This document shows, piece by piece, positions 14,821 through 48,556 of a stretch of 64,000 bases of DNA. The notes below the pieces were generated by a model. The model was given only the letters and a program-made list of their open reading frames with translations. It was not told where the DNA came from and ran no database searches. The position numbers and the translations under genes are program-made. The stretch's first letter is position 1; every line of letters begins with the position of its first letter. Source of the stretch: Minisyncoccota bacterium (lineage in GTDB: Bacteria > Patescibacteriota > Minisyncoccia > Phycocordibacterales > UBA9973); NCBI GenBank assembly GCA_021734995.1, contig JAIPHX010000004.1, forward strand, positions 18,115-82,114. The letters run 5' to 3'.

Positions 14821-14847
14821 GAACCCCGCATAGTGGGTTCTTTTTTT
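14821..14847 (+). promoter_or_regulatory. terminator-like hairpin + U-run in the pyrC leader (possible attenuator)
   Basis: GAACCCcgcatagtGGGTTC followed by TTTTTTT, ending 14 nt before the likely pyrC ATG (14861). A candidate promoter TTGCCA-16-TATCAT lies about 120 nt upstream (~14676-14705). Confidence 0.4.
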
Positions 14848-14860
14848 GTGTAAAAAAAAT

Positions 14861-17159: not shown

Positions 17160-17297
17160 TTACTTATACTCTAGAAACAACAGAAATCACTCTCTTCGTA
17201 ACCGCACTCTGTTCTGGAAGGGCAAGATTGAAAACTTTGGTAGCGAAGGTTTCTCCGAGAGTGTCTTCTGTTGCTTTTAAAAAATAAAAATATTCAA

Positions 17298-20519: not shown

Positions 20520-20550
20520 ATATTATTAAATTAAAATCAAAAAAAACAAA

Positions 20551-27681: not shown

Positions 27682-30402
27682 TTGTTTTTATGTCTTTTTG
27701 CATATCATGTTAGAATGTTTCTAATGAACAAGATGTACAAAAATTCAAATGATTTAAGAATGCCCCCTCAGAGTATTGCTTCTGAGCAAGCAGTCCTTGG
27801 ATCAATAATGCTTCGCAAAGATGCGCTACTTGATATTGAAGATGTAGTTAATGCAGATTCTTTCTATGCTCCAAAACACAAAATAATATTCCAATCAATG
27901 CTTGATCTTTCTTTAAAAAATGAACCAATTGATCTTTTGTCTGTTGCAAACAAATTAGCTGAACAAAAAAACATAGAGAGTGTCGGGGGAAACCAATACC
28001 TTGCGGAGTTGGCTAATAGTGTTCCATCTTCTGCCAACATTAGACACTATGCCGAAATCGTTCAAAAAAAATATATTTTAAGATCTTTAATAGAAGCATC
28101 CAACCATATCTCTGAAATTGCTTTTGAGGAAAATGATAGCAACCTAGATGAAGTATTGGACGAAGCAGAGAAAAAAATTTTTGGCATAGTGAACTCTCCT
28201 AAAAATCAAAAATATGTCAATCTAAAAGATGCTCTGCCTGAAGCTTTTGAAAGAATAGAAAAACTTAGTGAACACAAGGGAGGTCTTAGAGGAATACCTA
28301 CTGGATTTAAAGATTTAGACAATACTCTTTCTGGATTACAAAATTCAGATTTAATCATTCTAGCAGCTCGTCCTTCTGTTGGTAAAACTACCCTTGCCCT
28401 AGACATGGCTCGTATGTCTGCTATTGGACACAAAAAAGCAGTGGGTATATTTTCTTTGGAAATGTCTGCTCAACAACTCATAGACAGAATGCTCTCTGCT
28501 GAATCCAAAGTAGATGCTTGGAAAATTCGCACCGGTAAAGGTCTACATATAGAGCATGATTTTGGTAGAATCCGAGATGCTATGCAAAGACTTTCTGAAG
28601 CAAAAATATTCATAGATGATCAAGCAGGTAATTCTATCACCAAAATGAAAGCTGTAGCTAGACGTTGGAAAGCAGAAAAAGGATTAGATTTTATAATAGT
28701 GGACTATTTACAACTTATGACTACTTCTAAAAACTACGACTCTATGGTCAATCAAGTCACTGAAATTTCTCGTTCTTTGAAAGCTTTAGCCAAAGAATTA
28801 GACGTACCTGTACTTGCTCTTTCTCAGCTAAACAGAGCAGTAGAATCTCGTGGAGGGAAACCTAGACTTTCAGACTTGAGAGATTCGGGCTGTGTCACAG
28901 GTGATACTTTGATTCAAAGAGCCGATACAGGAGAAAGAATTCCGATTAAAGAATTGGTGGGACAACAAAATATACCTGTTATCTCTCTAAGTGGAGAATA
29001 TGAGTTACGACCAATGCTTGCTTCAAAATTTTTCTCTAATGGAAAAAAAGAAATTTTTGAATTAAAAATGCGTAGCGGTAAAACAATCAAAGCATCTGCA
29101 AACCATAAATTTTATACAATGGACGGGTGGCAAAGACTTGATGCACTAGACGAAAGTGACAGGATTGCGACCCCTCGTTTTATCCAAGCGACTTCTCCAA
29201 TATCCAACCTTTGTAAAGAAGAATTAATCTTACTTGCTCATCTGCTTGGAGATGGATGTGTACTACCTAGACAACCAATTCATTACACAAGCGCAGATGA
29301 AAAAAACATAAAAGCAGTAGAAGATGCTTCTGAAAAATTATTTGGCATCAAAGCCAGAAGAATTCGTCAAAAAAATTGGTGGCATACATATTTACCTTCT
29401 CCTTATCGTCTAACCAAAAACAAACATCACCCCATAACAGATTGGTACACAGAACTAGGAATTCAAGCAGTGCGTTCTTATGAGAAAAAAATTCCTAAAG
29501 CAGTCTTCGCTTCAGACAGTATGTCTATCCAGCTTTTCTTGCATCATCTTTGGGCTACTGATGGCAATATTTCTAGAAAAATTTTGGCAGGTAGGAAAAC
29601 ATCTGCTTCTATATACTATGCTACTTCTAGTAAAGAATTAGCAAAGGGTGTACAACATTTACTTTTACGCCTAGGAATTTGGAGCAATATCAGAGAAGTG
29701 ACACAAGGCAAATATCGTCCCATGTTTAATGTCTATGTGCAAAGTACTCCAATGCAAAAAAAGTTTTTAGATTTAGTAGGATCTTATGGTTCCAGAGGAA
29801 AAATTGTTTCCCAATTAAAAAAAGCATTAGAAGCTATTGCTCCTATCCCAAATACAGACACAATTCCAAAAGAAGTTTGGCAACTTTTTGTTGCTCCTGA
29901 AAAAGAAAAAGCAAACATGAGCTGGAGAGATGTTTCAGAAAATTTAAATATCTCTTACAATGGTAGTGCTTTAGTCACTAGAGGAGTCTCCAGAGAACGA
30001 TTAGCTAAAGTTGCTACCGTGTTGCAAAGCAAAAGCCTAGTTCACTTAGCTGAATCAGATATATATTGGGATGAAATCACATCTATCACTCCTCTTGGCA
30101 AAGAAGAAGTCTTTGATGCTACTGTTCCAGGAGCCCATAATTTTGTAGCTGAAGATATTATTATTCATAACAGTATAGAACAAGATGCTGATGTGGTGAT
30201 GTTTATCCACCGTGAAGATAAAGGTAAAGATGAATCTGAAAAGACTAATATCGCAGAAATTCTAATAGAAAAACACCGAAATGGTCCTACAGGAAAAGTA
30301 GAATTGTATTTTGATGAAAAAACTACTACTTTCCTAAACTTAGATAAAAGTAGTATCAATGAATTTTCAGCAACACAAATAAGTAATTTAGATGAATTTT
30401 AA
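27682..30402 (+). CDS. dnaB: replicative DNA helicase DnaB, interrupted by an intein
   Basis: The N-terminal DnaB domain, Walker A (ARPSVGKTT), Walker B (IIVDYLQLM) and the C-terminal FIHRED…EILIEKHRNGPTG are separated by a 427-aa insert. The true start is probably an internal Met (MNKMYK… at ~27724). Confidence 0.9.
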   Translation: MFLCLFAYHVRMFLMNKMYKNSNDLRMPPQSIASEQAVLGSIMLRKDALLDIEDVVNADSFYAPKHKIIFQSMLDLSLKNEPIDLLSVANKLAEQKNIESVGGNQYLAELANSVPSSANIRHYAEIVQKKYILRSLIEASNHISEIAFEENDSNLDEVLDEAEKKIFGIVNSPKNQKYVNLKDALPEAFERIEKLSEHKGGLRGIPTGFKDLDNTLSGLQNSDLIILAARPSVGKTTLALDMARMSAIGHKKAVGIFSLEMSAQQLIDRMLSAESKVDAWKIRTGKGLHIEHDFGRIRDAMQRLSEAKIFIDDQAGNSITKMKAVARRWKAEKGLDFIIVDYLQLMTTSKNYDSMVNQVTEISRSLKALAKELDVPVLALSQLNRAVESRGGKPRLSDLRDSGCVTGDTLIQRADTGERIPIKELVGQQNIPVISLSGEYELRPMLASKFFSNGKKEIFELKMRSGKTIKASANHKFYTMDGWQRLDALDESDRIATPRFIQATSPISNLCKEELILLAHLLGDGCVLPRQPIHYTSADEKNIKAVEDASEKLFGIKARRIRQKNWWHTYLPSPYRLTKNKHHPITDWYTELGIQAVRSYEKKIPKAVFASDSMSIQLFLHHLWATDGNISRKILAGRKTSASIYYATSSKELAKGVQHLLLRLGIWSNIREVTQGKYRPMFNVYVQSTPMQKKFLDLVGSYGSRGKIVSQLKKALEAIAPIPNTDTIPKEVWQLFVAPEKEKANMSWRDVSENLNISYNGSALVTRGVSRERLAKVATVLQSKSLVHLAESDIYWDEITSITPLGKEEVFDATVPGAHNFVAEDIIIHNSIEQDADVVMFIHREDKGKDESEKTNIAEILIEKHRNGPTGKVELYFDEKTTTFLNLDKSSINEFSATQISNLDEF
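28891..30171 (+). mobile_element. intein with LAGLIDADG homing-endonuclease domain inside dnaB
   Basis: Begins with Cys (RDSG|CVTGDTL), contains LAGLIDADG-like LLAHLLGDGC and a second block, and ends …IIHN|S (His-Asn followed by an extein Ser). It is in-frame, 1281 nt, located after Walker B at the common DnaB insertion site. Confidence 0.8.
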
Positions 30403-35154: not shown

Positions 35155-36246
35155 TTAAATCCCCTCTTCTTGTAATTTTTCTACAAGATCCCGAGTCTTA
35201 CGATTTAGTTTTTTGGGCATATTGATATTAACTTTTATCAGCAAATCACCTCTTCTACTACCACTCACAGGTACCCCTCTTCCTTTTACTCTAAGTATTT
35301 CATTGATGGATACACCGTCAGGTATTTTTACTTTTATTTCTCCATCTAAAGTCTCAATATTTTTATCAGCTCCCAAAAGCGCTTCACTCAATTTTATATC
35401 CAAATTCATTACGAGATTTGGTCCTTCTCTTTTGAAAACAGGATGTGGCTTAACGTGAATTTTAATATACAGATCTCCTGTAGTCCCTTTAGCAATAGCT
35501 TCTCCCATACCACTCATTCTTATCATTTCTCCATCTCTAATACCTGAGGGAACAGCCACTACCACTTCTTCCTCTTTTCTAATGACCCCATTACCCCTAC
35601 ATTCAGAACATTTTTCTGCATACACTTTTCCAGAACCAAGACAATCTTCACAAGCTTTTGTGGTAGAGATAGTTCCTAGAATAGAACGCTTAGTCTCATG
35701 TATTTTGCCCTGTCCATTACATCTCTTACAAGTATCCATTTTGGAATTTGGCTTACCTCCTGCACCATTACACTGCAGACAAAGAGAATTTTTTGTCATC
35801 AAGAATCTTCTAGTAACCCCAAAAATTGACTCACTGAAGCTAATCTGCATTTCCGTAGAAATATCTCTCCCTCTTCTAGCCTGAGGTCTTCCACCTCCAA
35901 AGAAATCACTGAAAATGTCGTTTAAATTTCCAAAATCAAAATCTGCTCCTGCTCCTCCATTTTGAAATCCGTTTGCAAAACCAGAAAAATCAAAACCACC
36001 AAATCCTTGGCCATATCCTTGACCACCACCCATATTTTCAAAACCAGCACCAAATTGGTCGTATTTCTGTCTTTTTGAGTCATCAGAAAGAGTTTGATAA
36101 GCTTCATTTACTTCTTTAAATTTTTTTTCGTCTCCTTCTTTTTTATCAGGATGATATTTATGAGCCAGCTTGTAAAAAGCTTTTTTTATCTCATCTTTAG
36201 ATGCACTTTTATTTACTCCCAATATTTCATAGTAATCTTTAGCCAT
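35155..36246 (-). CDS. dnaJ: chaperone DnaJ
   Basis: J domain (DYYEILGV…HPD), G/F-rich linker, and CxxCxGxG zinc-finger repeats. Confidence 0.9.
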
Positions 36247-36286
36247 AATAAAAGATTATACTCACACACACGAAGAGGTCAAGAGG

Positions 36287-37732
36287 CTATATCATCGGCT
36301 CAACCTCTTGTGTAGCACTTACAGATTTAGAATTCCCTTCTATCATTGACTTTTCTTCAGCGCTACGAATAATAGTAGCTTCTTCTTCAGCGATAAGATT
36401 TGCAGCACTTTCTTTTGAAATAGTATATTTTCTACGAGAAGCTTCTTCTATTTCTTTTCTATATGAAGGATGAGTTGGCGGTAAAATTCGTAAAGTCTCA
36501 GCAGAAAATGGGTCATAAGATTCACCATCTATGGTCATCTTAATATAAAATTCAGTTACTGCTAGATTAATCATATCTTTCACATCAAAGATAGGAGAGA
36601 ACTCAGGTTTCATTTTTACAGCATCTTCACCACCAATACGAAAAGAAATAATACTTCCACAATTACCCAATACTGCTTGATGCACTTTTGGAATAATTTG
36701 ACCGACATATTGATGCGCCATTGTAAGATTCAATCCGTATTTGCGAGCCTCTGAAAGAATGTTTTCAAATGTTTGAGTGACCACATTTTGAAACTCATCC
36801 ACATATATATAAAAATCTTTACGATCTTTTTCAAGCATACTTGCTCTTTCCATACCTGCTTGCTTAATCTTTGTCAAAAAAATAGATCCTAAGAAAGAGG
36901 AATTTTCTTCTCCGAGTCTTCCTTTAGAAAGATTGATCAATATAATCTTTTCTTTATTCATAAGCTCACTAATATCCACCTTATTTTCTTTCTGTCCAAA
37001 GATATTACGCAACAATGGATCTGAAAGGAATTGCCCAAGTTTATTGACCAAAGGAATAATAGCGTCAGTATCAAACTTTTCAGACCAATCGGCAAATTCA
37101 ATAGCGAAGAATCTTTTGACCATATCATCTTTGATATATTCAATTACTTTCTGTCTATAATTTCTATCAGTCAACATTGAGATCATTCCACGCATTGTCG
37201 CATAAGGGTAATCCAATAAAGCTAGACAAGTAAAACGAAAAACGTGTTCTAGGCGAGGAGTCCAATTGGCACCGAATTGTTTTTGAAAAACTTCAATCAA
37301 TCCTTGCGTAAGTTGGAACTTAAACATAGGATCTACATTTTGCAAAGGATTAAACGAGATTGGAAAATTAATATCTGTAGGATCAATAATACATACATCT
37401 TCAATACGTTCTTTTGGAATAAAATCAAGCATTGCATCTATCACATCTCCATGTGGATCTATAAGACAAAGCCCATGGTTATAAGAGATATCTTGCCTTA
37501 AAAATAATTCCATGAGTTTTGTTTTTCCTACTCCAGATTTACCAATAATATACAGATGCCTACGGCGATCTATTCTCTTTATACCAAAAATAAATTTCTT
37601 TTCTTCTAAAGAAGCAACGTAATTTGTGCGTCCAATGAAAGACACCTCCTCAGGTTCTACTTTCCCAAAAATAGGAAGTTCTGGTGGTGGTGGTGCGTAT
37701 TTTATTATCTGTACTCTATTTCCTTTTGGCAT
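36287..37732 (-). CDS. FtsK/HerA-superfamily P-loop ATPase (DUF87/HerA-like; T4SS-coupling-protein-like)
   Basis: Walker A IIGKSGVGKT followed by the HerA-type CLIDPHGD motif; Walker B YIYVDEFQ. Paralogue of the next gene. Confidence 0.55.
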   Translation of the reverse strand: MPKGNRVQIIKYAPPPPELPIFGKVEPEEVSFIGRTNYVASLEEKKFIFGIKRIDRRRHLYIIGKSGVGKTKLMELFLRQDISYNHGLCLIDPHGDVIDAMLDFIPKERIEDVCIIDPTDINFPISFNPLQNVDPMFKFQLTQGLIEVFQKQFGANWTPRLEHVFRFTCLALLDYPYATMRGMISMLTDRNYRQKVIEYIKDDMVKRFFAIEFADWSEKFDTDAIIPLVNKLGQFLSDPLLRNIFGQKENKVDISELMNKEKIILINLSKGRLGEENSSFLGSIFLTKIKQAGMERASMLEKDRKDFYIYVDEFQNVVTQTFENILSEARKYGLNLTMAHQYVGQIIPKVHQAVLGNCGSIISFRIGGEDAVKMKPEFSPIFDVKDMINLAVTEFYIKMTIDGESYDPFSAETLRILPPTHPSYRKEIEEASRRKYTISKESAANLIAEEEATIIRSAEEKSMIEGNSKSVSATQEVEPMI

Positions 37733-37763
37733 ATATTAATATTCTAACATTTAAGTGATACAT

Positions 37764-40061
37764 TTATCCTAAAATTTTTCGCAAGACATCTTCAGGTACT
37801 TCTTTTGTTTTATTTTTCAGATCTTCTTGTTTCTTTTTACTGTCATATTCTTCGTTTTCGTCTTCTTGTTTCTTTTGATCATCATTTACCTGTTTTTCAT
37901 CTTCTTCTGTATTTTGATTATCAATTATCTCATCTTTTTTATTTTCTTGTTTAACTTCAGAATCTTCTAGAGGTCTTTCCCTTTCTGGAACTTTTGATAT
38001 TTCAGGCATTTCTATTTCGCGCACTATTCCAGAAAATACTGGAGTTTGTTCTTTTACATCTTCTTCTTTTTTTATCTCATTGACTTCTTTTGTTACAATT
38101 TTTTCAGTTATTTCTTTTGTTTCATCTATATCACTTATTTCCTCAAACTTTCCAATAAAATCTTTAAGCTTATTCATTTCTTCTAATGAAGCAGATTTAT
38201 CATTTTTAGGTGGTTTATTTTCTGTTTTTGATTTCAATATGTCTAAAGAAGCAGGAGGTTCTACCGGCTCACTTACCACTTCTTTTATTTCTTCTTTAGC
38301 TTTTATTTCTTCTGTTTTATTATTTAAAGTCTTATTTAAAATATCTTTTAAAGCACTTGTATCTCTTTCTTTTTCATTTTTATTTTTATTTTTTGAAAAA
38401 ACATTTTTGATTCCAGAAAATATTTTTGGTCTACCTGAACTTTTGTTATTATTACTTTCCCTCGAATCCTTAGAAGGTTCTTTGCTTTGTTCATTACTCT
38501 CTTCTTGTGCAAACTCTATTCCTAGATCCATTAATGGTTTATAAAACTTAGTAGGCTTGTAGTTTGACACAGACTCACCTTTCACTGGCTTCATTTCTCC
38601 TGCTTTTATTTTAGTAATACAATCTTTACAATACACAGGTCTTCCTTTTTCTGGTTTAAAAGGAACTTTTGTCGCATTTCCACAAGAAGAACACTCTACA
38701 TCAAATTTTTCAAAATTATTATTACCAGGATTTCCGTTTTCATCCAGAATAGACATTCCACTCCAATTATTTATTTCTTTTTCTACCTCTTCCTTTGTTT
38801 TACAATATAATTCACGAGACATTTTTATCACTTCCGTTTCTATTTCCTGATTACCAGATTTTACCAATTGAGGCATTGTTTTTGCAGAAAATGGACGCGA
38901 TGTAACTCCGTCAATCATAAGCTTCATATATACTTTATAATTCGGTAAATTAACAATATCCTCTGGAGTAAATTCTGGTTCAAATTCTTTTTCCAAAAAA
39001 TCAGCATCATCTGCTCCTACTCTAAACACAATCATTGTTCCAATGTTTCCAAAGATAGCATCACGAACAGAAGAGCTTTCTTTGGTAACAAGCTGAGCAG
39101 TGTATTGGTGAGCAACTGTAAGATTTAGGCGGTATTTTCTAGCTTCAGAAAGAATACCTGCAAAAGCATCTGTAACGAAATTTTGAAATTCGTCCACGTA
39201 AAGATAGAAATCTTTACGTTCATCTTCTGGGATACGTACTCTTTCCATCGCAGCAAGCTGAATTTTAGTAATAATCATACCTCCAAGAAGAGCTGAGTTG
39301 TCTTCTCCAATTCTTCCTTTTGAAACGTTTACCAAAAATATTTTTCCTTCATTCATCATATCAAAAATATTGATAGTACTTTTAGACTGACCCACAATAT
39401 TTCTAATAATAGAAGTAGATAAAAATTGCCCTACTTTGTTTTGAATAGGAGCGATAGCTTCGTTTCTAAATTTATCTTGCCATTCTTCGTATTCATGTAT
39501 CCAAAAAGCTTTAATGACAGGATCTTTCAAATTGGTGATTATTTTTTGTCTATAATCTTTGTCTACCAACATTCTAGGGATACCAAGAAGAGTAGTTCCA
39601 GGAGTATCTAGTAAAGCCAAAATAGCATTATTTAAAATATATTCCATTCTGGCACTCCAAGCATTTGCCCATATTTTTGTAAATATTCCCATCAAACCAG
39701 AAGCTACTAAATGCTTATACTTAGGATCTATTAATTCCAGCACATTAAAACCTATATGATATTCTGTATCAGCAGGATTAAAATATATTACATCTTTTAA
39801 TCTATGAGGTGGTATAGCAGAAAGGACACCTTCCACATTCTCTCCATGAGGATCCACAAGACATACACCATCTCCATTCTGGATGTTTTGAATAATCATA
39901 TTGAACATTAGAGCAGATTTACCAGTACCAGATTTTCCAAGAATATATACATGCTGACGTCTGTCTCTACGCTTTATACCAAAGAGTTTATTTTGGTCAC
40001 GAAAACTGGCTAAGCCAAGATATGTAAGGTCTCTATTACGTGGTAAGTCTGATAAATCCAT
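37764..40061 (-). CDS. FtsK/HerA-superfamily P-loop ATPase with C-terminal CxxC…CxxC zinc ribbon and ~330-aa K/E-rich low-complexity tail
   Basis: Walker A ILGKSGTGKS, CLVDPHGE, Walker B LYVDEFQ. Then CSSCGNATKVPFKPEKGRPVYCKDC, then a long lysine/glutamate-rich tail (…KEEIKEVVSEPVEPP…EDENEEYDSKKKQEDLKNK…). Confidence 0.55.
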   Translation of the reverse strand: MDLSDLPRNRDLTYLGLASFRDQNKLFGIKRRDRRQHVYILGKSGTGKSALMFNMIIQNIQNGDGVCLVDPHGENVEGVLSAIPPHRLKDVIYFNPADTEYHIGFNVLELIDPKYKHLVASGLMGIFTKIWANAWSARMEYILNNAILALLDTPGTTLLGIPRMLVDKDYRQKIITNLKDPVIKAFWIHEYEEWQDKFRNEAIAPIQNKVGQFLSTSIIRNIVGQSKSTINIFDMMNEGKIFLVNVSKGRIGEDNSALLGGMIITKIQLAAMERVRIPEDERKDFYLYVDEFQNFVTDAFAGILSEARKYRLNLTVAHQYTAQLVTKESSSVRDAIFGNIGTMIVFRVGADDADFLEKEFEPEFTPEDIVNLPNYKVYMKLMIDGVTSRPFSAKTMPQLVKSGNQEIETEVIKMSRELYCKTKEEVEKEINNWSGMSILDENGNPGNNNFEKFDVECSSCGNATKVPFKPEKGRPVYCKDCITKIKAGEMKPVKGESVSNYKPTKFYKPLMDLGIEFAQEESNEQSKEPSKDSRESNNNKSSGRPKIFSGIKNVFSKNKNKNEKERDTSALKDILNKTLNNKTEEIKAKEEIKEVVSEPVEPPASLDILKSKTENKPPKNDKSASLEEMNKLKDFIGKFEEISDIDETKEITEKIVTKEVNEIKKEEDVKEQTPVFSGIVREIEMPEISKVPERERPLEDSEVKQENKKDEIIDNQNTEEDEKQVNDDQKKQEDENEEYDSKKKQEDLKNKTKEVPEDVLRKILG

Positions 40062-40099
40062 ATATATAAATTATACCTTGCACAGAATGTTTTATCAAT

Positions 40100-40131
40100 A
40101 AAAAAACTGGCTTTGCGAAGCCAGTTTTTTT
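40100..40131. terminator. intrinsic terminator downstream of dnaK (palindromic)
   Basis: AAAAAAACTGGCTTtgcgAAGCCAGTTTTTTT directly after the dnaK stop codon. Confidence 0.5.
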
Positions 40132-40135
40132 ATCT

Positions 40136-42055
40136 TTAATTTTTAGTACCCTCTGTATCTCCCTTGTTTTCCGCTTCATTGAATTCTGCATCTCGCACTT
40201 CTGCGGGTTGCTCTTCAGGAGTAGCATTACTTTCAGGATTTGGCTCATTCGTACCAGCTTTAGCCATAGCTTCCCCTATCTTTGACATTTCAGAAGAAAG
40301 CTCTTCGGTGGCTTTTTTGATAGCTTCCATGTCATTCCCATCTTTTACTGATTTCAAATTTGAAATCTTTGTTTCTACTTCTTTTTTCAAATCTTCAGGG
40401 ATACTTGCTTCATTATCTTTCAAAGCCTTTTCAGCTGTGTAGATTATCATCTCTCCTGTATTTTTTACATCTACTATTTCTTTTTTCTTTTTATCTTCTT
40501 CAGCGTGGACTTCAGCATCTTGTTGCATTTTTTTAATATCTTCTTCTTTCAATCCAGAGCTAGCTTCTATTTTTATAGACTGTACTTTCCCAGATGCTTT
40601 TTCTTTTGCTGTAACATTTAAAATACCATTTGCATCTACATCAAAAGTAACTTCCACTTGAGGAATTCCTCTTGGAGCAGGTGGTACCCCATCTAAGATA
40701 AATTTACCGAGAGATTTATTGTCATTTGCCATTGGTCTTTCTCCTTGTACTATATGTATCTCCACTGAAGTTTGGTTGTCCGCAGCAGTAGAGAAAACCT
40801 GTGATTTAGAAGCTGGAATGGTAGTGTTTCTCTCAATCAATTTTGTGGCTACTCCACCAAGTGTTTCTATCCCCAAGGAAAGAGGTATCACATCAAGAAG
40901 TAGTACATCTCTAACTTCTCCTTTTAAAACTCCAGCTTGAACCGCAGCTCCTAGTGCCACTACTTCGTCTGGGTTAATAGACATGTTTGGAGTTTTTCCA
41001 AAAAAGTTTTTTACTGCTTCTGTTATGGCAGGCATTCTTGTCTGACCTCCCACCATGATTATTTCATTAATATCACCCATTTTAAATGGAGAAGCTTCTA
41101 ATGCTCTCTTTGTAATTTCAATAGATCTGTCTATATATTCACGAGCCAAAGATTCCAAAGTAGCTCTAGTCATTTTCAAAAGTAAATGTTTAGGGCCATC
41201 AGCTCCAGAAGTGATGAATGGTATATTTATTTCAGTTTCAGTAGTAGTAGAAAGTTCATGTTTCGCTTTTTCTGCCCCTTCTTTTAATCTTTGATGTGCA
41301 AGAGGGTCTTTAGATACATCAATACCTGACTCTTTTTTAAATTCCTCAGCAATCCAAGTAATAATCTTTCTATCAATATCACCACCTCCCATATGACTAT
41401 CTCCGTCTGTAGATTTTACTTCTATTACATCATCCCCAATTTCTAAAATAGATACATCAAATGTTCCTCCTCCAAAGTCATACACTACGATTTTTTCATT
41501 TTTCTTTTTATCAAAACCATAAGCTAATGCTGCAGCGGTAGGCTCGTTGATTATTCTCTTTACATCAAGCCCCGCAATCGCTCCAGCATCTTTTGTGGCC
41601 TTTCTTTGAGAATCATTAAAATATGCAGGGACAGTAATCACCGCTTCAGTTACTTTTTCTCCTGTTTTTGCCTCCACATCTGCTTTTATTTTTTGCAAAA
41701 GCATTGCAGAAATTTCTTCTGGACGATAAAACTTATCAGTCATTTTTACTTTTACTCCACCATCTTCACCGTTTTCAATTTTAAATGAAGCTGTTTGTTT
41801 ATCTTTTTGTACTTCTGGATCATCAAAACGATGCCCCATATATCGCTTTACTTCAGCTATTGTATTTTCAGGATTAGTCACAGCTTGTCTTTTAGCCAAA
41901 AGCCCAACCAAACGATCCCCGTTTTTTGCCATAGCAATCACAGAAGGAGTAGTTCTATTTCCTTCTACGTTTTCCACAATTTTAGGAGCACCTCCTTCAA
42001 TAATGGCTACGGCAGAATTTGTTGTCCCCAAATCAATTCCTATTATTTTACTCAT
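40136..42055 (-). CDS. dnaK: chaperone DnaK (Hsp70)
   Basis: [18 protein letters not shown]…, DLGGGTFD, and full Hsp70 ATPase and substrate-binding domains. Confidence 0.95.
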
Positions 42056-42174: not shown

Positions 42175-42693
42175 ATGTCAAGTAAATCAGACTATTCCAA
42201 AAAAATATTAGGTATTTTAGGCCAAAAAACAGCCATCTCTTTAGAGAATATCAAAAAAGGAGAAGACTCTAAAGCGAAATATGCTCTGACTAGATCTGTA
42301 AAAAATATGATTGAAGGAGGATTGGCTGAAATACACAAATCTACCAACCAAACTTTTTTAAAAATCACCCCAAAAGGTAAAGCAAAATTAAATTGTCTAA
42401 AATTAGAAGGTAAGGATGCTTTGGTTTCCAATTCTTGGGATGGTATGTGGAGGATTATTATTTTAGACATGCCAGAAACTAGAAAAAATGAGCGTGATAG
42501 TTTAAGATATATATTAAAGAAGGCAAATTTTGTTTGTATTAAAAATACTGTATGGGTATCCCCTTTCCCTTATGAACATTTGTTCTATAATTTAAAGAAG
42601 GACTTAGGATTATCCACAGAACTTATCATTATCGTCACAAACAAAGTAGACGATGATACTGCCAAAAATTTTTTGGAATCAATAAAATCATGA
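42175..42693 (+). CDS. winged-helix regulator, PaaX-family-like C-terminal domain
   Basis: N-terminal wHTH-like segment; C-terminal W.GMWRIIILDMPETRKNERDSLRYILKKANF…NTVWVSP matches the PaaX_C-type pattern (W.G.W…D.PE..R..RD.LR…GF…SVW.SP). Confidence 0.4.
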   Translation: MSSKSDYSKKILGILGQKTAISLENIKKGEDSKAKYALTRSVKNMIEGGLAEIHKSTNQTFLKITPKGKAKLNCLKLEGKDALVSNSWDGMWRIIILDMPETRKNERDSLRYILKKANFVCIKNTVWVSPFPYEHLFYNLKKDLGLSTELIIIVTNKVDDDTAKNFLESIKS

Positions 42694-43379
42694 AGATACA
42701 TAGATTTATCGGGGATTACAATTTGAATAAAGATTTCATTACTATTACTGATCTATCTCAAGTAAAGCAAATTAAAAATGTTTTAAAGTTAAATATTAAT
42801 GAACACATTTTTTTATCGGATGGGATGGGAAAAGAAATTGAAGCAGAAATTCAAAATATTCAAAAAGAACAAATTATGGTAAAAAAAGTAGTGGAAATTA
42901 TTACAGAAAAAGAAAATAAAAAAGTGAACTTGTATCTTGCTATCTTAAAGAAAGAAAACTTTGAATTAGCCGTCCAAAAAGCAGTAGAATGTGGCGTGTC
43001 AGAAATCACACCAATTTTAACAAAAAGAACAATAAAGACAGGTATCAAGAAAGATAGGCTTGAAAAAATAATCAAAGAGGCATGTGAACAATCTGGAAGA
43101 AATATTATTCCAAAAATAAATGAAATTACAACTTTTGAAAATGCATTACAAGAAGGACAAAAAAACGATCGTAAGGTGATTTTTCATTTTTCCAAAGAAG
43201 AATACTCAAATATCCCTGATATCAAAAGCATCGCTATATTTATAGGGCCAGAAGGTGGTTTTACTGATACTGAAATATCATTTGCAAGAGAACAAAAATA
43301 TGAAATTTGCTCTTTAGGTGACCATACACTACGAGCTGAGACTGCTTGTATTGTAGGGAGTTATCTTGCTTGCCACTAA
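42690..43379 (+). CDS. rsmE: 16S rRNA (uracil1498-N3)-methyltransferase RsmE
   Basis: PUA-like N-terminus and SPOUT C-terminus with IFIGPEGGFT; 229 aa; HRF at the N-terminus. Confidence 0.7.
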   Translation: MKIHRFIGDYNLNKDFITITDLSQVKQIKNVLKLNINEHIFLSDGMGKEIEAEIQNIQKEQIMVKKVVEIITEKENKKVNLYLAILKKENFELAVQKAVECGVSEITPILTKRTIKTGIKKDRLEKIIKEACEQSGRNIIPKINEITTFENALQEGQKNDRKVIFHFSKEEYSNIPDIKSIAIFIGPEGGFTDTEISFAREQKYEICSLGDHTLRAETACIVGSYLACH

Positions 43380-45115
43380 TACACCTCTTTATTATAACAC
43401 CCCTCACAATACACTATCTCTGGTCTATCTGGAGCATATGAGGTTTCGAATTCATTTGAGCACTCTTTTGTTCCGTTTGTATGCATATGTGCTTCTTTAT
43501 CACACATACAAGAGCGGTGCCAGAGTTTCATTGGGTTTCTTTTTGATAGTCTTTCGTAGTGTCTACAATTGGGACAGGTGTTTGGAACAGGAATTTTATT
43601 TTTTTTATAAAAAGACAACTCACTCTCTGTAAGTTTAAAAGCTTCAGTACATTTATGTTCACACTTACCTAAGTGTGAACAACCTATAATATTATTTAAT
43701 ATAGTATCATCAACATCTTTAATATTATCTGGTATACCTTGTGAAGGCAAATCTATCCTATAGTTCCTCTCTTCATCATCTTTCCATTTAAAACAAAGAT
43801 CTAGGGCAATATTTTTATTCAAAGGAAAAAATTCTTGAGCAGTTGATTCATTGTACGAAAAAGGAGACAGATCATATGGAAAGAATTCTCCATATTTATA
43901 TATTCTATTTTTTTTATCAATATATGGATTAGAATTCATTTCTTCTTTAATCTTTTCAATTAAAATTTGGTATTCCTCTTTTGTGTATTGTTTATTTAAA
44001 ATACAATATGACTTTTTTTGCAGAGAAATACAACCAAAAAGAAAAGAAGACCCTTTACACATTTCTGAATATTCTACATTGTTTGAGGTATCTACCACAT
44101 GCACAAACTTTGTATTTGATACTTCTTCAGGGCTCATCGCTTCATATACATATTGACTATTACCCATACCATAACAATCGTATATTTCTTTTGAGGAAAA
44201 AACCCATGCAGAGTATCTACTATTCTCTAGATCAAAACCATCAAATACCATTTTCGAATTTTTAGTATTTACTAGATTATCTCCTGTAGAATTTTGACAA
44301 CTTACTAAGTTTCCGTATTTATGTATAGATTGTTTTTTAATATTATCAAAAAGTTTTTTATACTCATCAATAATCTTTTTTGAACCTAAATCAATTTCCT
44401 TTAATCTTTCGAGATAAGCATCTTTTGAAAGATTTTCTCCCATAAACGTATATGAACTATTTCTTTTATTTATAATTCCAAAACAATTAGAGATATTTCT
44501 AGAGTTTGAAACAAAATAAGAATCAATCAATGCTTCAGATTTTTCTGAATAAAATGTATTATATGATTTTTCAACATTAAAAGCTTCGTATAAATTCTCT
44601 GAATAATGAGAATAAACTACGTCCATACATTTTTTTAAATTAACTGCTCTAGCTACATACATACAATCTTCTGAATCTCTAAACCCGTAAGAAAGATAGC
44701 AATTTTTGTTATTGTATGATTGGTTGGTATATGGCGAATTTGTACATTGTACAGTCCAAATACCCAATCTGGGTACTTTTAGTTGTAATTCTCTAAATAA
44801 TTCGAAAAAAGATTTTAAATTATCATATTCAATTCCAAAATCTATTGGATCCCAATTATCGCTATACCAACAATCTCTACAATATATCGTATAACATGAA
44901 TCTTTGGGGTACAAAGAAATGAAAGATTTTTTACATAAATCACAATCTCTTTTATACAAAGACCTTTCATTTCTCCACATAAATCTCCTCTGCATCCTAC
45001 ACTCCGGACAAAAAGTAGGTGGTGGTACCTTGATTTTTTGATAGAAAAGAAAGTCTTCTGACTCTATCATAAAGTCATTTTTGCAATTTTGACAGTTTTT
45101 AGTTTCTGGTGGCAT
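43376..45115 (-). CDS. Cys-rich paralogue family protein 1 (N- and C-terminal zinc-ribbon motifs, duplicated Cys-repeat core)
   Basis: N-terminal CQNCKNDFMIESEDFLFYQKIKVPPPTFCPECR and C-terminal LCPNCRHYERLSKRNPMKLWHRSCMCD…EIVYCEGCYNKEVY; about 30 Cys. Member of a six-gene family in this window. Confidence 0.6.
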   Translation of the reverse strand: MPPETKNCQNCKNDFMIESEDFLFYQKIKVPPPTFCPECRMQRRFMWRNERSLYKRDCDLCKKSFISLYPKDSCYTIYCRDCWYSDNWDPIDFGIEYDNLKSFFELFRELQLKVPRLGIWTVQCTNSPYTNQSYNNKNCYLSYGFRDSEDCMYVARAVNLKKCMDVVYSHYSENLYEAFNVEKSYNTFYSEKSEALIDSYFVSNSRNISNCFGIINKRNSSYTFMGENLSKDAYLERLKEIDLGSKKIIDEYKKLFDNIKKQSIHKYGNLVSCQNSTGDNLVNTKNSKMVFDGFDLENSRYSAWVFSSKEIYDCYGMGNSQYVYEAMSPEEVSNTKFVHVVDTSNNVEYSEMCKGSSFLFGCISLQKKSYCILNKQYTKEEYQILIEKIKEEMNSNPYIDKKNRIYKYGEFFPYDLSPFSYNESTAQEFFPLNKNIALDLCFKWKDDEERNYRIDLPSQGIPDNIKDVDDTILNNIIGCSHLGKCEHKCTEAFKLTESELSFYKKNKIPVPNTCPNCRHYERLSKRNPMKLWHRSCMCDKEAHMHTNGTKECSNEFETSYAPDRPEIVYCEGCYNKEVY

Positions 45116-45149: not shown

Positions 45150-46892
45150 CTAATACACCTCTTTATTATAACACCCTTCACAGTACACTATCTCTGGTCT
45201 ATCTGGAGCATATGAGGTTTCGAATTCTTCTGTGCACTTCCCTACATGTCCATGTTTGTCTTTATCACACATACAAGAGCGGTGCCAGAGTTTCATTGGG
45301 TTTCTTTTTGATAGTCTTTCATAGTGTCTACAATTGGGACAGAGCCTAGGGAGTGGTAGATTCATACGTTTGTAGAATTGTAATTCTTCAGGAATTATCT
45401 TGAAAGCTTCAGTACACTGATGGTTACAATCTTTGTGTTGACACTCAATGACTTTGTTAATAATGAAATCATCTAAATCTTTAATATTATCAGGGATATC
45501 TTCTGTTTTAATATCTATTGTATAGTTTCTTTCTTCTTTATCTTTCCATTCATATCCTTGTTCTTTTGCTTGTTCTTTAATTAAAGGAAAGAATTCTTGA
45601 GCGATTGTTTCATTGTAGGCAAATGGACTTAATTCACTTGGAAAGAATTCTCCATACTTATATACTCTCCCCTTACTATCTATGTATGGCATATCATTCA
45701 TGTGTTTTATTATTTTAGGAACTAGATCTTCATATTCTTCTTTGGTGTATTGTTTGTTTAGAATGCAGTATTGTTTGTTACGGAGGCCGATGCAGGCAAA
45801 GAGATTAGAACAAGATTTACACATCATGGAGTACGTTAAATTATGACTTACATCGATAGAGAAAGTGAACAAATTTGTATTTGGAGAAAAACCACAACCC
45901 ACACTTTCGTAAACAAGTTCTCCGTTGGCAACGCCATGTACATCATAAACATCTTTACATCCTTTTAAAACTCGCATACTGTAAGCTACATTTTCTGAAG
46001 AAGTTACATCAAAAGATTTTTTAACATTTTTTGAATTCACAATATTATTACCTTTAGAATTTAATGAATTTCTTATTTCAGCATATTTATGAGGTACAGA
46101 ATTCTTCATGCTATAAAAATCTTTTTTAAGCTTCTCGTTAACTACATATGACCCAAAGTCCATTTTATTTATTAAACTATTATATTCTTTAACACTTAAT
46201 TGTTTATTGTAAAAAAAGTTACTGGCATTAATTAAATTAGATGACATGAAACATTGGTTGATATTTGAACTTTTAAAAATAAATTTTGAGTGTATGCCTT
46301 CTTTAACTTGTTGTAAATAACTACATTCATTATTGTGGTAACTATCTAGTGAATTAGAGCATAATTCTGAGTCTTGCAACCAGTCAGAATCAAAACAATT
46401 ATGTAATCCAGAAGAGTTTGAACAATATAACGAGTCTTGACTTTCAATAACAGAAAAACACATATAACAATCTTTAACATTACCATTATAATTTCCATAT
46501 TCACTATTTAACTGTTTACCTTTTGTGTCTGCTGGTATTAACGGCACTTTTTTAAATAATTCATAAAATTGTTCAAAGAACGGATTTGAAAAATTATATT
46601 CTTTTGCATAAAATAGAGGATCCCATCTATCTCCCCACCAACAATCATGACAATAAACCTTAAATAAAGTTTCTTGATAATAATTTGTAACAAACTTTTT
46701 ATTACATAAATCACATCTTTTATGATACAAGTTTCTCTCATTTCTGAAATTCATCCTGCGTACCATCCTACACTCCGGACAAAAAGTAGGTGGTGGTACC
46801 TTGATTTTTTGATAGAAAAGAAAGTCTTCTGACTCTATCATAAAGTCATTTTTGCAATTTTGACAGTTTTTAGTTTCTGATGTCATATACAA
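45150..46892 (-). CDS. Cys-rich paralogue family protein 2
   Basis: Same terminal motifs; core diverged from paralogue 1. The termini (~110 bp at the 5' end, ~170 bp at the 3' end) are near-identical at the DNA level. Confidence 0.6.
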   Translation of the reverse strand: MYMTSETKNCQNCKNDFMIESEDFLFYQKIKVPPPTFCPECRMVRRMNFRNERNLYHKRCDLCNKKFVTNYYQETLFKVYCHDCWWGDRWDPLFYAKEYNFSNPFFEQFYELFKKVPLIPADTKGKQLNSEYGNYNGNVKDCYMCFSVIESQDSLYCSNSSGLHNCFDSDWLQDSELCSNSLDSYHNNECSYLQQVKEGIHSKFIFKSSNINQCFMSSNLINASNFFYNKQLSVKEYNSLINKMDFGSYVVNEKLKKDFYSMKNSVPHKYAEIRNSLNSKGNNIVNSKNVKKSFDVTSSENVAYSMRVLKGCKDVYDVHGVANGELVYESVGCGFSPNTNLFTFSIDVSHNLTYSMMCKSCSNLFACIGLRNKQYCILNKQYTKEEYEDLVPKIIKHMNDMPYIDSKGRVYKYGEFFPSELSPFAYNETIAQEFFPLIKEQAKEQGYEWKDKEERNYTIDIKTEDIPDNIKDLDDFIINKVIECQHKDCNHQCTEAFKIIPEELQFYKRMNLPLPRLCPNCRHYERLSKRNPMKLWHRSCMCDKDKHGHVGKCTEEFETSYAPDRPEIVYCEGCYNKEVY

Positions 46893-46913: not shown

Positions 46914-47831
46914 CTAGAAATCAATCAGCAATATATTCTTTCCTTTTGAGTGACCTTTTTTTTGATATTTTAAAGCTTTTTTAAAGTGTTTAATATTAAA
47001 ATACTTATCCACAACAACCTTTATTGTTCCTTTTCCAATAAGTTTAACGATCTGCCCCAAGTCTTTTGAATCTGAATGAAACAAAAAATGCTTAGCTAAA
47101 ATATCATATCCTTCCAAATCTTCACTAGTTGGTTTTCCATTTATTGATAAATATTTTCCACCTTTCTTTAATACCTTAAAAAGAGTACTCTTCATTGAAA
47201 CACTATCAAGAACACAATCAAGATCTTTTATCTTATTAAAACTTGAAGTGTTGGTATAGTCTAAAATCTCATCAGCCCCAATATTATATAAAAACTTATG
47301 GTTTTTCTTTGAAGCAGAAGTATACACATACGCCCCTTTCCATTTAGCAAACTGTATTGCAAACAAACCCACTCCTCCAGCCCCAGCAGTTATAAATATC
47401 TTTTGTCCTTTTTTTAAATTAAGTTCTTTAAATAGAGATTGCCAAGCTGTCAGACTAGCCAAAGGAATTGATGCTGATTTTAAAAGAGATATATTTAATG
47501 GTTTTTTATATATATACATCTCTTTCGTCACTATGTATTCAGCACAAGCCCCCTGTTTCAACCATTCAAGAGATCCAATTACTTTATCTCCTTTTTTATA
47601 TTTTTTTATTTTTTTACCAACCTTAACAGCAACACCAGAAAAATCACTACCTAAAATATATGGCTTTTTAAATATATTATATTCTATTCCTTTCCAATCT
47701 ACAGGGTTTAATCCAACAGCTTTTACTTTAATTAAAATTTCATTATTTAAAATATCAGGGATAGGAATTCTTTTTATTCTTATATAGTTTCCTGATATAT
47801 TTTTATCTACAAAAATAGCTTTCATAATCAA
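46914..47831 (-). CDS. zinc-type/MDR-superfamily NAD(P)H-dependent oxidoreductase (quinone oxidoreductase-like)
   Basis: GroES-like N-terminus; Rossmann motif ITAGAGGVGLFAIQFAKWKGAYVY. Confidence 0.7.
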   Translation of the reverse strand: MIMKAIFVDKNISGNYIRIKRIPIPDILNNEILIKVKAVGLNPVDWKGIEYNIFKKPYILGSDFSGVAVKVGKKIKKYKKGDKVIGSLEWLKQGACAEYIVTKEMYIYKKPLNISLLKSASIPLASLTAWQSLFKELNLKKGQKIFITAGAGGVGLFAIQFAKWKGAYVYTSASKKNHKFLYNIGADEILDYTNTSSFNKIKDLDCVLDSVSMKSTLFKVLKKGGKYLSINGKPTSEDLEGYDILAKHFLFHSDSKDLGQIVKLIGKGTIKVVVDKYFNIKHFKKALKYQKKGHSKGKNILLIDF

Positions 47832-47833
47832 TT

Positions 47834-48556
47834 TTACAAAAAGCTTTTAAACCAAACCAATGTATTCTTAAACAATGAATTTTGTACAACATCTGAGTCA
47901 TTAAAAAGGTGTGTAGCCTTCGGGATAATTTTGAATTTTTTCTGATTTAAATTAAACTTATAATAATTAAAAGCTTTTTTAACCAATGTTCCATTACCAG
48001 CAACAGCAACTAAGATGGGACATTTGAAATTTTTGGCTAAAAAATCCCATTTTAAGTTATTTGTTTCATCAATTAATTTTTTACTAAAAACAGTTGTAAG
48101 CCCCCAAGGCATGATATAACCATCTAATTCTTTAATATATTTACCTATCTTTTTATTAAACATAAATTTATAAGACGGGTCCCATAGAGCAACAGCATCA
48201 AAATTTTGATCTTTGGAAGAAAAGATAACAGGACCTCCAAAACTATGCCCAACAATAAACACCTTTTGAAAACCAAGTTTACGAAAATATCTAACTGTTT
48301 GATCAACATCAAAACCGGAAGTTTTTAAATCACAGTCTATGAATTGACGCGCTTTCGGTCTCCAATCATAAAGATTCAAACGAAAAGTGGCAAATCCATT
48401 ATCCGCAAAAAAGTTAACAGCATCATGAATTAATTTTTCTTCCATATCTCCTGTAAGACCATGAACTATCACAAATAAAGGCTTAGCAAAATCCCCTTTT
48501 AATTTTCCATATAAATATACATCTTTAGCGACTTTAATTTTTACTAATTTTTCCAT
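47834..48556 (-). CDS. alpha/beta-fold hydrolase
   Basis: Nucleophile elbow GHSFGG (IVGHSFGGPV); 240 aa; start is 2 nt after the oxidoreductase stop. Confidence 0.6.
   Translation of the reverse strand: MEKLVKIKVAKDVYLYGKLKGDFAKPLFVIVHGLTGDMEEKLIHDAVNFFADNGFATFRLNLYDWRPKARQFIDCDLKTSGFDVDQTVRYFRKLGFQKVFIVGHSFGGPVIFSSKDQNFDAVALWDPSYKFMFNKKIGKYIKELDGYIMPWGLTTVFSKKLIDETNNLKWDFLAKNFKCPILVAVAGNGTLVKKAFNYYKFNLNQKKFKIIPKATHLFNDSDVVQNSLFKNTLVWFKSFL

Follow-up and report, generated by a model that had tools for sequence, protein, structure and literature searches.

Type IV coupling proteins (T4CPs) such as TrwB of plasmid R388, VirD4, TraD, DotL and Cag-beta are built around a RecA-like motor in which an all-alpha insertion lies between the Walker A and Walker B motifs. 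They normally start with a membrane anchor, and in the TraD-TraM and DotL-adaptor systems a C-terminal extension serves for partner docking, with the C-terminal tip of F-plasmid TraD binding TraM and the tail of DotL holding adaptors. Proteins of this type are also widespread in Patescibacteria, for which the survey by Quinonero-Coronel et al. (2025, PMC12102498) counts 5713 VirD4-type T4CP homologues in 2918 of 3035 genomes (96%, ~1.96 per genome) and VirB4 in 2417 genomes, and leaves exaptation of the T4CP homologues as an option that its authors did not exclude. Here, we describe two adjacent ATPase genes, which we call P1 and P2, in a 64,000-nucleotide (nt) stretch of contig JAIPHX010000004.1 from a Minisyncoccota bacterium (this whole 64-kb stretch is referred to below as the window). 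We present evidence that they encode a duplicated, anchor-less pair of coupling-protein motors, and that they are linked to a family of cysteine-rich proteins (Cys570) that may be their clients or adaptors.

Both genes lie on the minus strand, in the order dnaK, P2, P1, dnaJ and with successive gaps of 74, 31 and 40 nt (coordinates of all features are given in Table 1), and their products are 44% identical across 418 amino acids (aa; E 1e-128). A first-pass annotation, made from the DNA letters and translated open reading frames (ORFs), had described two tandem HerA/FtsK-like ATPase paralogues between dnaK and dnaJ. The tandem pair and its placement are confirmed by our analysis, and all of the motifs quoted in that annotation are found in the two proteins, namely Walker A (GKSGVGKT in P1 and GKSGTGKS in P2), then DPHGD or DPHGE, and a DEFQ Walker B common to both, with Walker A and Walker B intact in each. 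The description as HerA/FtsK-like holds insofar as P1 and P2 are ring translocases of the ASCE type within the FtsK/HerA/VirD4 superfamily, but they are neither HerA nor FtsK proper, as shown by both the T4CP matches in Pfam and the TrwB-like predicted fold.

In Pfam searches judged against the curated cut-offs, TrwB_AAD_bind (PF10412, cut-off 20.5 bits) scores 27.5 bits in P1 and 40.2 bits in P2, PF12696 (cut-off 22 bits) scores 24.7 and 26.4 bits, respectively, and PF02534 (cut-off 20.1 bits) scores 22.4 bits in P1. The HerA central domain (PF01935, DUF87) is also above its cut-off of 23.2 bits, with 28.5 and 29.3 bits in the two proteins; the HerA models of PADLOC and NCBIfam align to short stretches only, FtsK_SpoIIIE (PF01580) has no Pfam match in P1 or P2 at E values up to 1, and the VirB4/CagE model TIGR00929, with 16 bits, falls far short of its cut-off of 643. 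An AlphaFold2 model of P1 built from 28 sequences is of moderate quality overall (predicted local distance difference test, pLDDT, 68; predicted template modelling score, pTM, 0.73), with a core (aa 70-300) at pLDDT 84-93 that includes an all-helical block (aa 135-245, likewise pLDDT 84-93) between Walker A and Walker B. When this model is compared with the PDB using Foldseek, TrwB is returned first (E 4e-9), followed by DotL and Cag-beta, with HerA (E 3e-7) and, after it, VirB4 (E 8e-6 to 5e-5) ranking below them. TrwB is also the sole sequence match in the PDB, with the similarity to solved T4CPs confined to the P-loop and its surroundings. Merely 63 (P1) and 41 (P2) residues precede Walker A, and these appear in the P1 model as just short strands of low confidence, so that neither protein can hold a HAS barrel. 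HerA and FtsK are therefore rejected as family assignments on account of the lack of a PF01580 match, the short N-terminus and the better fold match to TrwB. No nuclease or effector partner of HerA (NurA, Sir2, DUF4297) is found in the window or in 80 related loci. The NCBI entries whose sequences match P1 and P2 exactly come from a 'Candidatus Pacebacteria' metagenome-assembled genome, which places the organism in the Patescibacteria (CPR), and carry the name [quoted passage not shown].

Related motors are also found on plasmids, where tblastn locates P1/P2 homologues inside the conjugation loci of Embleya and Bacillus subtilis. On the Embleya plasmid NZ_CP108778, the homologue (WP_331738717.1, 812 aa, E 1e-52) follows a PrgI/VirB3-like gene and a VirB4-like ATPase, and precedes a replication-relaxation (relaxase-like) gene and an NlpC/P60 hydrolase; on the B. 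subtilis plasmid NZ_CP032854, the genes after the homologue (WP_121549396.1, 886 aa, E 1e-26) encode a relaxase-like protein, TcpE and a VirB4-like ATPase. The motors of both proteins are 27-29% identical to P1 across 84-90% of its length. Because the Pfam matches, the TrwB-like predicted fold and these homologues in conjugation loci point the same way, the placement of P1 and P2 in the VirD4/TrwB/TraD class of coupling proteins is well supported. Separately, we note that, among plasmid-borne relatives, the one nearest to P1 (36.7% identity, E 2e-78) is encoded on the Sulfitobacter plasmid NZ_CP081110 (99994-101181, locus L082), where a solitary, anchor-less 395-aa ATPase of an alphaproteobacterium lies amid transposases and recombinases, with no genes of a type IV secretion system (T4SS) nearby.

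P1 and P2 nevertheless depart from TrwB, VirD4 and TraD in several respects. Where those proteins have an N-terminal transmembrane (TM) domain, no hydrophobic segment is present in P1 or P2, in which the maximum 19-residue hydropathy is 1.0 and 1.1, respectively, compared to a maximum of 2.7 (Kyte-Doolittle, 19 residues) in the anchored relative P0259. Where those proteins are encoded by a single gene, P1 and P2 are two diverged paralogues, of which P2 carries a treble-clef finger; and they are not encoded together with VirB4, VirB6 or a relaxase in the window. A HMMER search returned 20,839 relatives at E values up to 1e-3, many of which have an N-terminal extension of 250-400 aa that in some opens with a TM helix. 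Among 80 species-level genome loci selected by the ATPase, this N-domain is fused to the ATPase, encoded by a separate gene, or out of reach. The fused form occurs in Berkelbacteria and Peribacteria-type loci, and the separate form is a membrane protein of 435-476 aa encoded directly upstream of P1 or P2. Its homologues are tagged PF26449 in a large protein database, which we take to be DUF8128; no paper on DUF8128 was found in the literature. In single-sequence searches, a hidden Markov model (HMM) of the N-domain matches the N-terminal regions of both plasmid proteins (E 5e-14 for Bacillus, E 5e-8 for Embleya), and on this basis the patescibacterial genes can be understood as a split and duplicated subfamily of conjugative T4CPs.

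It is thus well supported that P1 and P2 descend from a T4CP subfamily of single-membrane (monoderm) bacteria. The same holds for an ancestral full-length plan consisting of a TM helix, a PF26449-type N-domain of ~300 aa, a motor with an all-alpha insertion and an acidic tail, and for the view that in Patescibacteria the N-terminal membrane part became a gene of its own while the motor was duplicated into the short P1 and into P2 with its zinc finger and long tail. The plasmid proteins of Bacillus and Embleya, which share the homologous motor and an N-region equivalent to the patescibacterial N-domain, differ from P1/P2 in being single, full-length, membrane-anchored genes in conjugation clusters beside a relaxase-like gene, in lacking both the zinc finger and Cys570 neighbours, and in being plasmid-borne, whereas P1 and P2 are core chromosomal genes.

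In 15 loci, a further gene lies between the N-domain gene and P1 and encodes a protein of ~170-215 aa, which we call S, with one TM helix and a helical domain carrying an invariant A-H-x2-R-N-x3-H motif. The resulting compact operon has the order N-domain, S, P1, P2, as in locus L063 (6042-11153, with S at 7443-7976). Neither the N-domain nor S, at full length, has a match in profile searches of Pfam, NCBIfam, PADLOC and the PDB. The invariant motif of S shows a putative HEPN-like R-x4-H spacing.

In P2, the zinc ribbon noted in the first-pass annotation, CSSCGNATKVPFKPEKGRPVYCKDC at aa 457-481, is recovered by both PF23477 (family match at aa 452-484, 52.6-59.7 bits, cut-off 27) and TIGR04272 (56.2 bits, cut-off 36), and, judged by its sequence, the P2 finger is a member of the CxxC-x17-CxxC (zf_Tbcl_2) zinc-finger family. 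This family (TIGR04272/PF23477) is known from small Methanosarcina proteins, and zinc binding has been shown experimentally for two archaeal CxxC-x17-CxxC members (PMC12704099). The Methanosarcina proteins are free-standing and small, whereas at the present locus the same finger is fused to a motor ATPase and also occurs at the C-terminus of Cys570, in multi-finger proteins of ~570 aa.

The ribbon is followed by a tail (aa 486-765) with 17.5% lysine, 17.5% glutamate and a net charge of -13, which is predicted to be disordered on the basis of its charge and hydropathy (mean hydropathy of 0.346, compared to a boundary value of 0.430). P2 has more than 8000 homologues, and in all of the best 120 (640-790 aa) the zinc ribbon is present, with 129-312 residues of tail (median 211) after it, so that the tail is not an assembly artefact. 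The long K/E-rich tail of ~330 aa that had been pointed out initially is therefore real, but it is not of uniformly low complexity, as it comprises the zinc finger, three conserved islands and a C-terminal peptide. Specifically, across the 120 homologues, aa 461-520 (the finger and YKPTKFYKPLMDLGIEF) are conserved, aa 541-580 and 601-640 are conserved in part, and the last 13 residues are conserved, whereas aa 641-740 (nt 37842-38141) are a K/E/D-rich insertion peculiar to this genome. Analysis of the tail for disorder and conservation, as had been suggested, thus gives a predicted disordered, variable linker with conserved islands and a conserved tip.

The P2-type ending, (K/R)E(V/I)PE(D/E)VL(R/K)K(I/V)LE (...EVPEDVLRKIL in the window), is located at, or no more than ~3 residues from, the C-terminus in nearly all close homologues and in most related loci. 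Three further amphipathic motifs lie upstream in the tail (ALKDILNKTL, SLDILKSK and LEEMNKLKDFIGK), giving four motifs of the L-x-x-(I/V)-L-x-K type in all. P1 ends, after a short variable acidic linker, in a tip of the type [E/A]-P-[M/L/I]-[I/V/L]-COOH, which is kept from 100% to ~48% identical relatives, including the N-domain fusions, and the Bacillus plasmid protein, too, finishes with a disordered, acidic stretch whose last residues are hydrophobic (...FDDLLV). SSB also has a C-terminal tip, and by analogy the combination of a motor, a flexible linker and an invariant tip resembles TraD, DotL and SSB. By the same analogy, the tails of P1 and P2 are probably tethers that dock partners.

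We next consider the genes that accompany the ATPases. The first-pass annotation had seen no VirB-like, nuclease or pilin partner, and a Pfam scan of all ORFs of at least 120 aa in the window indeed finds none; its broader statement that there are no partner genes at this locus does not hold, however, as six linked copies of another family, Cys570, share the finger type of P2. The Cys570 array starts 3.3 kb upstream of P2, on the same strand as P1/P2, and consists of six paralogues of ~570 aa with 30-37 cysteines, no TM segment and 31-52% mutual identity, interrupted by three unrelated genes. Their architecture begins with a CxxC...CxxC ribbon, a CxxC-x17-CxxC module and two internal cysteine-rich repeat halves, followed by a conserved PY.D..G..YKYGEFFP..SPF.YNET segment, a further ribbon and a C-terminal CxxC-x17-CxxC. 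The C-terminus of the copy at 51228-52925 matches PF23477 with 29.7 bits (cut-off 27), which is the same family as the P2 finger, and in the whole window the exact CxxC-x17-CxxC pattern is confined to P2 and four of the six Cys570 paralogues. The isolated zinc-finger ends are the only parts of Cys570 that match Pfam; full-length Cys570 has no match in profile searches of Pfam, NCBIfam, PADLOC and the PDB, tblastn finds no match in 50,697 phage records, and no relevant paper on cysteine-rich or zinc-ribbon paralogues in Patescibacteria was found. Among the Cys570 copies, the minus-strand segments 46914-48556 and 50338-51252 encode a Zn-dependent alcohol dehydrogenase, an alpha/beta hydrolase and an Lnb_N-domain protein.

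The linkage between the two families was examined from both sides. An HMM built from the six window copies detects 94 Cys570 ORFs in 45 of the 80 ATPase-selected loci, every one of them on the ATPase strand, and in 30 of the 80 loci, including Berkelbacteria and Peribacteria-type loci, a Cys570 gene lies less than 300 nt from an ATPase gene. In the reverse test, 79 metagenome loci were selected by Cys570 alone; 31 of these span at least 12 kb, and in 19 of the 31 a P1/P2-type ATPase is found within 10 kb, with 34 of 37 ATPase ORFs sharing the strand of Cys570. Cys570 is thus tightly linked to the P1/P2 ATPases in searches from either family. We note also that in the plasmid relatives the neighbour of the coupling protein is the relaxase, its client, and that in Patescibacteria it is often Cys570 that occupies this position. 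Cys570 arrays reach seven copies; in the metagenome loci L099, L129, L089 and L123, tandem arrays of 5-7 Cys570 genes occur with the ATPase not within reach.

The ATPases themselves are strongly conserved. P1 homologues are 82-91% identical across many metagenome-assembled genomes, and aa 21-400 of P2 show 71-100% column identity per 20-residue block in the 120 homologues. In the 10 loci that contain all four genes, the mean identity to the window is 86.7% for P1, 86.6% for the P2 core, 82.9% for DnaK and 65.6% for DnaJ. A P1-type and a P2-type gene lie at most 8 kb apart in 52 of the 80 species-level loci, where typing follows the best ATPase hit and is only nominal in the most distant lineages, and in several more distant lineages the two are directly in tandem, in either order. 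The P1/P2 paralogue pair is thus ancient and constrained as strongly as DnaK, and such constraint speaks for a core function that involves many contacts, not for a defence or mobile gene. Two-domain ATPase fusions (P0293 and P0324) were considered as "Rosetta stones" for a P1-P2 pairing, and are only partly useful in this regard: the two halves of a fusion share 44% identity and are both nearer to P2, indicating independent duplications.

The genes of the window are almost certainly among the T4CP homologues counted in PMC12102498, given the NCBI name, the presence of two copies and the lack of virB4 nearby. As far as the available portion of that survey extends, the P1/P2 split, the loss of the anchor, the finger, the tail peptides, PF26449, S, Cys570 and the Hsp70 synteny are not described in it, so that P1 and P2 are represented in this literature as a count, and their anatomy and partners have not previously been described there.

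The surroundings of the ATPases in this clade are those of the Hsp70 genes. The full minus-strand order is rplM, rpsI, grpE, the Cys570 array, two plus-strand genes, dnaK, P2, P1 and dnaJ, such that both the array and P2-P1 sit within a stretched grpE...dnaK...dnaJ order. All 25 loci of the closest clade have dnaJ downstream of P1 (mostly directly, else after Cys570 genes), dnaK is observed in 13 of the 25, and the Cys570 genes shift among the grpE-dnaK, P2-P1 and P1-dnaJ gaps; an order of the grpE/dnaK/P2-P1/dnaJ type recurs in more than 10 independent metagenome loci. This linkage is missing in other clades, except in L059 and L060, where Hsp70 genes are 3-5 kb off. A palindromic hairpin past the dnaK stop codon and sigma-70-like sites before P2 and dnaJ (Table 1) suggest separate transcription units, and a third such site (11/12), like the others a consensus match only, lies just upstream of dnaK. 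Co-transcription of P2-P1 with dnaK and dnaJ is consequently doubtful, in view of the hairpin, the promoter-like matches and a synteny restricted to one clade, and P2-P1 seems to be served by a separate promoter. The simplest reading is that the P2-P1 bicistron was inserted into a heat-shock neighbourhood and kept there by descent: its placement between dnaK and dnaJ is lineage-specific, inherited in one clade and not required for function. No paper combining Patescibacteria, dnaK and VirD4 was found. Divergent from dnaK, a 172-aa PaaX_M (Cas2-like) protein is encoded at 42175-42693 (plus strand), with a counterpart in the same position in locus L004 (2162-2695), and may be a heat-shock regulator replacing HrcA.

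Table 1. Features of the P1/P2 locus and its neighbourhood, in coordinates of the window.
Feature	Position	Strand	Description	Basis or remark
P1	36287-37732	minus	481 aa, T4CP-type ATPase	ORF call, Pfam, AlphaFold2 model, homologues
P1 Walker A	37520-37543	minus	aa 64-71	
P1 Walker B	36788-36799	minus	aa 312-315	
P1 C-terminal peptide	36290-36310	minus	QEVEPMI-COOH	conserved after short variable acidic linker
P2	37764-40061	minus	765 aa, T4CP-type ATPase with zinc finger and predicted disordered tail	ORF call, Pfam, homologues
P2 ATPase core	38757-40061	minus	aa 1-435	alignment to P1, column conservation
P2 Walker A	39915-39938	minus	GKSGTGKS	
P2 Walker B	39183-39194	minus	DEFQ	
P2 treble-clef zinc finger	38619-38693	minus	CxxC-x17-CxxC, aa 457-481	PF23477, TIGR04272
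P2 tail	37767-38606	minus	aa 486-765	composition, charge-hydropathy, per-block conservation
P2 C-terminal peptide	37767-37805	minus	KEVPEDVLRKILG	conserved in homologues
Cys570 copy 1	43376-45115	minus	~580 aa, 30-31 Cys, several zinc ribbons	
Cys570 copy 2	45150-46892	minus	~580 aa, 30-31 Cys, several zinc ribbons	
Cys570 copy 3	48578-50305	minus		
Cys570 copy 4	51228-52925	minus	C-terminal finger matches PF23477	
Cys570 copy 5	52946-54688	minus		
Cys570 copy 6	54703-56370	minus		
dnaJ	35155-36246	minus		context
dnaK	40136-42055	minus		context; so far not shown as part of a P1/P2 machine
grpE	56342-56983	minus		context
Palindromic hairpin	40098-40133	both	16-bp stem, flanking A and T runs, terminator-like on both strands	just past dnaK stop
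Sigma-70-like match	40070-40098	minus	TTGATA-17-TATAAT, 11/12	upstream of P2; consensus match only
Sigma-70-like match	36255-36282	minus	11/12	upstream of dnaJ; consensus match only

Taking these observations into account, the reading that we favour, and that we regard as about equally likely to be right or wrong in its entirety, is that P1 and P2 form a duplicated, soluble coupling-protein motor that recruits Cys570 proteins as clients or adaptors, for remodelling or for hand-over to the membrane. P1 and P2 would build one, likely mixed, hexameric ring, a shared ring being probable because neither protein has lost its catalytic motifs and the two remain paired across large evolutionary distances. 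The flexible tail of each subunit, ending in its invariant docking peptide, would recruit partners in the manner of the TraD-TraM or DotL-adaptor systems, with the P2 tail contributing several copies of the amphipathic motif. The best candidates for the clients or adaptors would be the Cys570 proteins encoded beside the ATPases, which share the CxxC-x17-CxxC finger of P2. ATP hydrolysis would then remodel these clients or pass them to a membrane machine, which could be either the T4SS that Patescibacteria encode at other loci or PF26449 together with the small TM protein S.

A bolder extension of this proposal, which we consider rather unlikely as it stands, is that P1/P2, Cys570 and, in most lineages, PF26449 and S constitute an undescribed pan-Patescibacteria core machine, derived from conjugative coupling and working outside the T4SS, that exports Cys570 proteins or deploys them at the envelope or in the host. 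The P1/P2 ring would in this case catch the diversified Cys570 proteins through its tethered docking peptides and the common zinc finger, and Hsp70 might hold them unfolded before export.

Several observations weigh against a coupling-protein motor with Cys570 clients. The NCBIfam models of T4CP subfamilies (TraD, CD1115, TraG) score far under their cut-offs (for CD1115, 51 bits compared to a cut-off of 250), and the defence ATPase model mad8 scores about as highly as the T4CP models. No VirB4, VirB6, pilin or relaxase is found among the ORFs of the window. According to PMC12102498, only 148 of the 5713 T4CP homologues are near virB4 and the Southlakia homologue is not essential where the T4SS genes are, which argues against an obligatory T4SS role; the text of a transposon sequencing (Tn-seq) preprint leaves the coupling protein unmentioned. 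Genes for the N-domain (PF26449) and S are detected by our own HMMs neither in the window nor, for the 25 loci of the closest clade, anywhere within 8 kb, and may therefore have been lost there. As neither these two genes nor the secretion genes listed above occur in the window, the membrane end of the model, which would have to be borrowed from relatives, is best regarded as provisional for this genome. The P1-P2 hetero-ring, the docking by the tails and the role of Cys570 as a client are likewise deduced from synteny and shared domains, and the fold of Cys570 offers little guidance, as the model from the six paralogues is poor (pLDDT 64, pTM 0.60) and Foldseek returns nothing from the PDB at E below 1.

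The most substantial competing explanation is that P1 and P2 are a T4CP-derived DNA motor involved in DNA uptake, chromosome handling or residual conjugation, with the fingers of P2 and Cys570 binding nucleic acid. The nearest characterised relatives, TrwB and TraD, are DNA-dependent conjugation ATPases, the plasmid homologues adjoin relaxase-like genes at the position that Cys570 often takes in Patescibacteria, treble-clef and TFIIB-like fingers are often nucleic-acid-binding (as discussed in PMC12704099), and Patescibacteria are naturally competent (PMC12857230). However, no relaxase, oriT-type feature or competence gene is found near P1/P2, PMC12102498 gives just 109 relaxases across the 3035 genomes, no DNA-binding domain is recognised beyond the generic zinc fingers, and up to seven diverged Cys570 paralogues resemble a set of diversified clients more than a single DNA-processing enzyme, making a DNA motor unlikely in our assessment. 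We give still less weight to an Hsp70-linked cytoplasmic machine, in which P1/P2 with DnaK, DnaJ and GrpE would unfold, assemble or quality-control Cys570 with no membrane translocation. The position of the module inside grpE...dnaK...dnaJ, the dnaJ gene following P1 throughout the clade and in the similar metagenome loci, the nearby Hsp70 genes in the distant L059 and L060, and the probable resemblance of the P2 tail motifs (hydrophobic core, K/R flanks) to DnaK-binding peptides would all fit such a machine; yet the linkage is missing from most other clades, the hairpin and promoter-like sites suggest separate units, and in other lineages the ATPases, whose ancestor was a membrane coupling protein, show linkage with genes for two membrane proteins. 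A functional link to Hsp70 is accordingly a minority hypothesis.

An anti-phage or conflict system built on a HerA/mad8-like ATPase, one of the settings raised in the first-pass annotation, is, like a mobile-element reading, a poor fit, and we consider it very improbable. P1 and P2 share membership of the ASCE superfamily with the HerA/mad8 ATPases, exceed the PF01935 cut-off and are weakly matched by the PADLOC models for mad8 (44 and 56 bits), HerA and DndH, their neighbours are arrays of diversified paralogues, and the motif of S has the HEPN-like spacing mentioned above. Against this, defence islands are patchy and fast-evolving, whereas the P1/P2 genes are core, vertically inherited and as slowly evolving as dnaK, being near-universal (96% of genomes) according to PMC12102498; moreover, there is no nuclease, Sir2 or methyltransferase partner in the window, Cys570, S and the N-domain have no PADLOC matches, and the two ATPases have neither a HAS barrel, for which 41-63 residues are too few, nor a nuclease or effector partner, with a fold nearer to TrwB than to HerA. 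A further reading, in which the locus is what remains of a decaying integrated conjugative element inserted into a dnaK operon, is close to refuted. The genes do derive from coupling proteins of plasmids or integrative and conjugative elements, and a serine recombinase and a PcfJ-like gene occur elsewhere in the window; however, neither ORF is disrupted, purifying selection on both is very strong across thousands of genomes, the guanine-plus-cytosine (GC) content equals that of the surroundings (~31% in the window, with no break in composition at the P1/P2 locus), the gene order is stable over the whole clade, and the recombinase and PcfJ-like gene are 22-35 kb away.

The remainder of the window is mostly housekeeping, with aminoacyl-tRNA synthetases, DnaB, RecR, CarAB, PyrB-type, ScpAB, Ddl and ribosomal proteins, and a tRNA-Trp as the sole RNA gene found. 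A large serine recombinase (1446-2768, plus) lies beside this tRNA-Trp (3794-3867, minus), and a PcfJ-like ORF of 690 aa (12569-14641, plus) is found 10 kb beyond the pair; the recombinase and the PcfJ-like ORF, which lie 22-35 kb away from P1/P2, may be what is left of an integrated element. DnaB (27682-30402, plus) contains an intein with a LAGLIDADG homing endonuclease (Pfam, with an identical gene in L001), and toxin genes of the MazF/PemK and AbiEii types (22346-22729 and 25710-26339, both minus) are interspersed among the housekeeping genes. The segments 14846-21468 (plus) and 24240-25259 (minus) encode an amidohydrolase, both carbamoyl-phosphate synthase subunits, an aspartate/ornithine carbamoyltransferase and a PRPP synthetase, and these nucleotide-synthesis genes are present even though the lineage is usually described without them. 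Finally, a 469-aa ORF with no Pfam match (61239-62648, minus) adjoins an FtsA-like gene (62664-63773); a contig index has no entry for precisely this product, so that the start codon may differ.

A large part of bacterial diversity belongs to the Patescibacteria, which are host-dependent and whose dealings with their hosts are poorly understood. What the survey reports as a count (96% of genomes, about two homologues each, unlinked to the T4SS) becomes here a concrete and testable gene set, comprising the anchor-less P1 and P2, their terminal docking peptides, the split-off membrane N-domain, the TM protein S and the unannotated Cys570 family. If Cys570 proteins are indeed the cargo or adaptors, the substrate of a near-universal motor would be identified, and a component of conjugation would be shown to have been converted into a core cellular function. 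Should the bolder proposal of a pan-Patescibacteria core machine prove true, it would supply, in Cys570, a first candidate family of cargo proteins or effectors for these epibionts.

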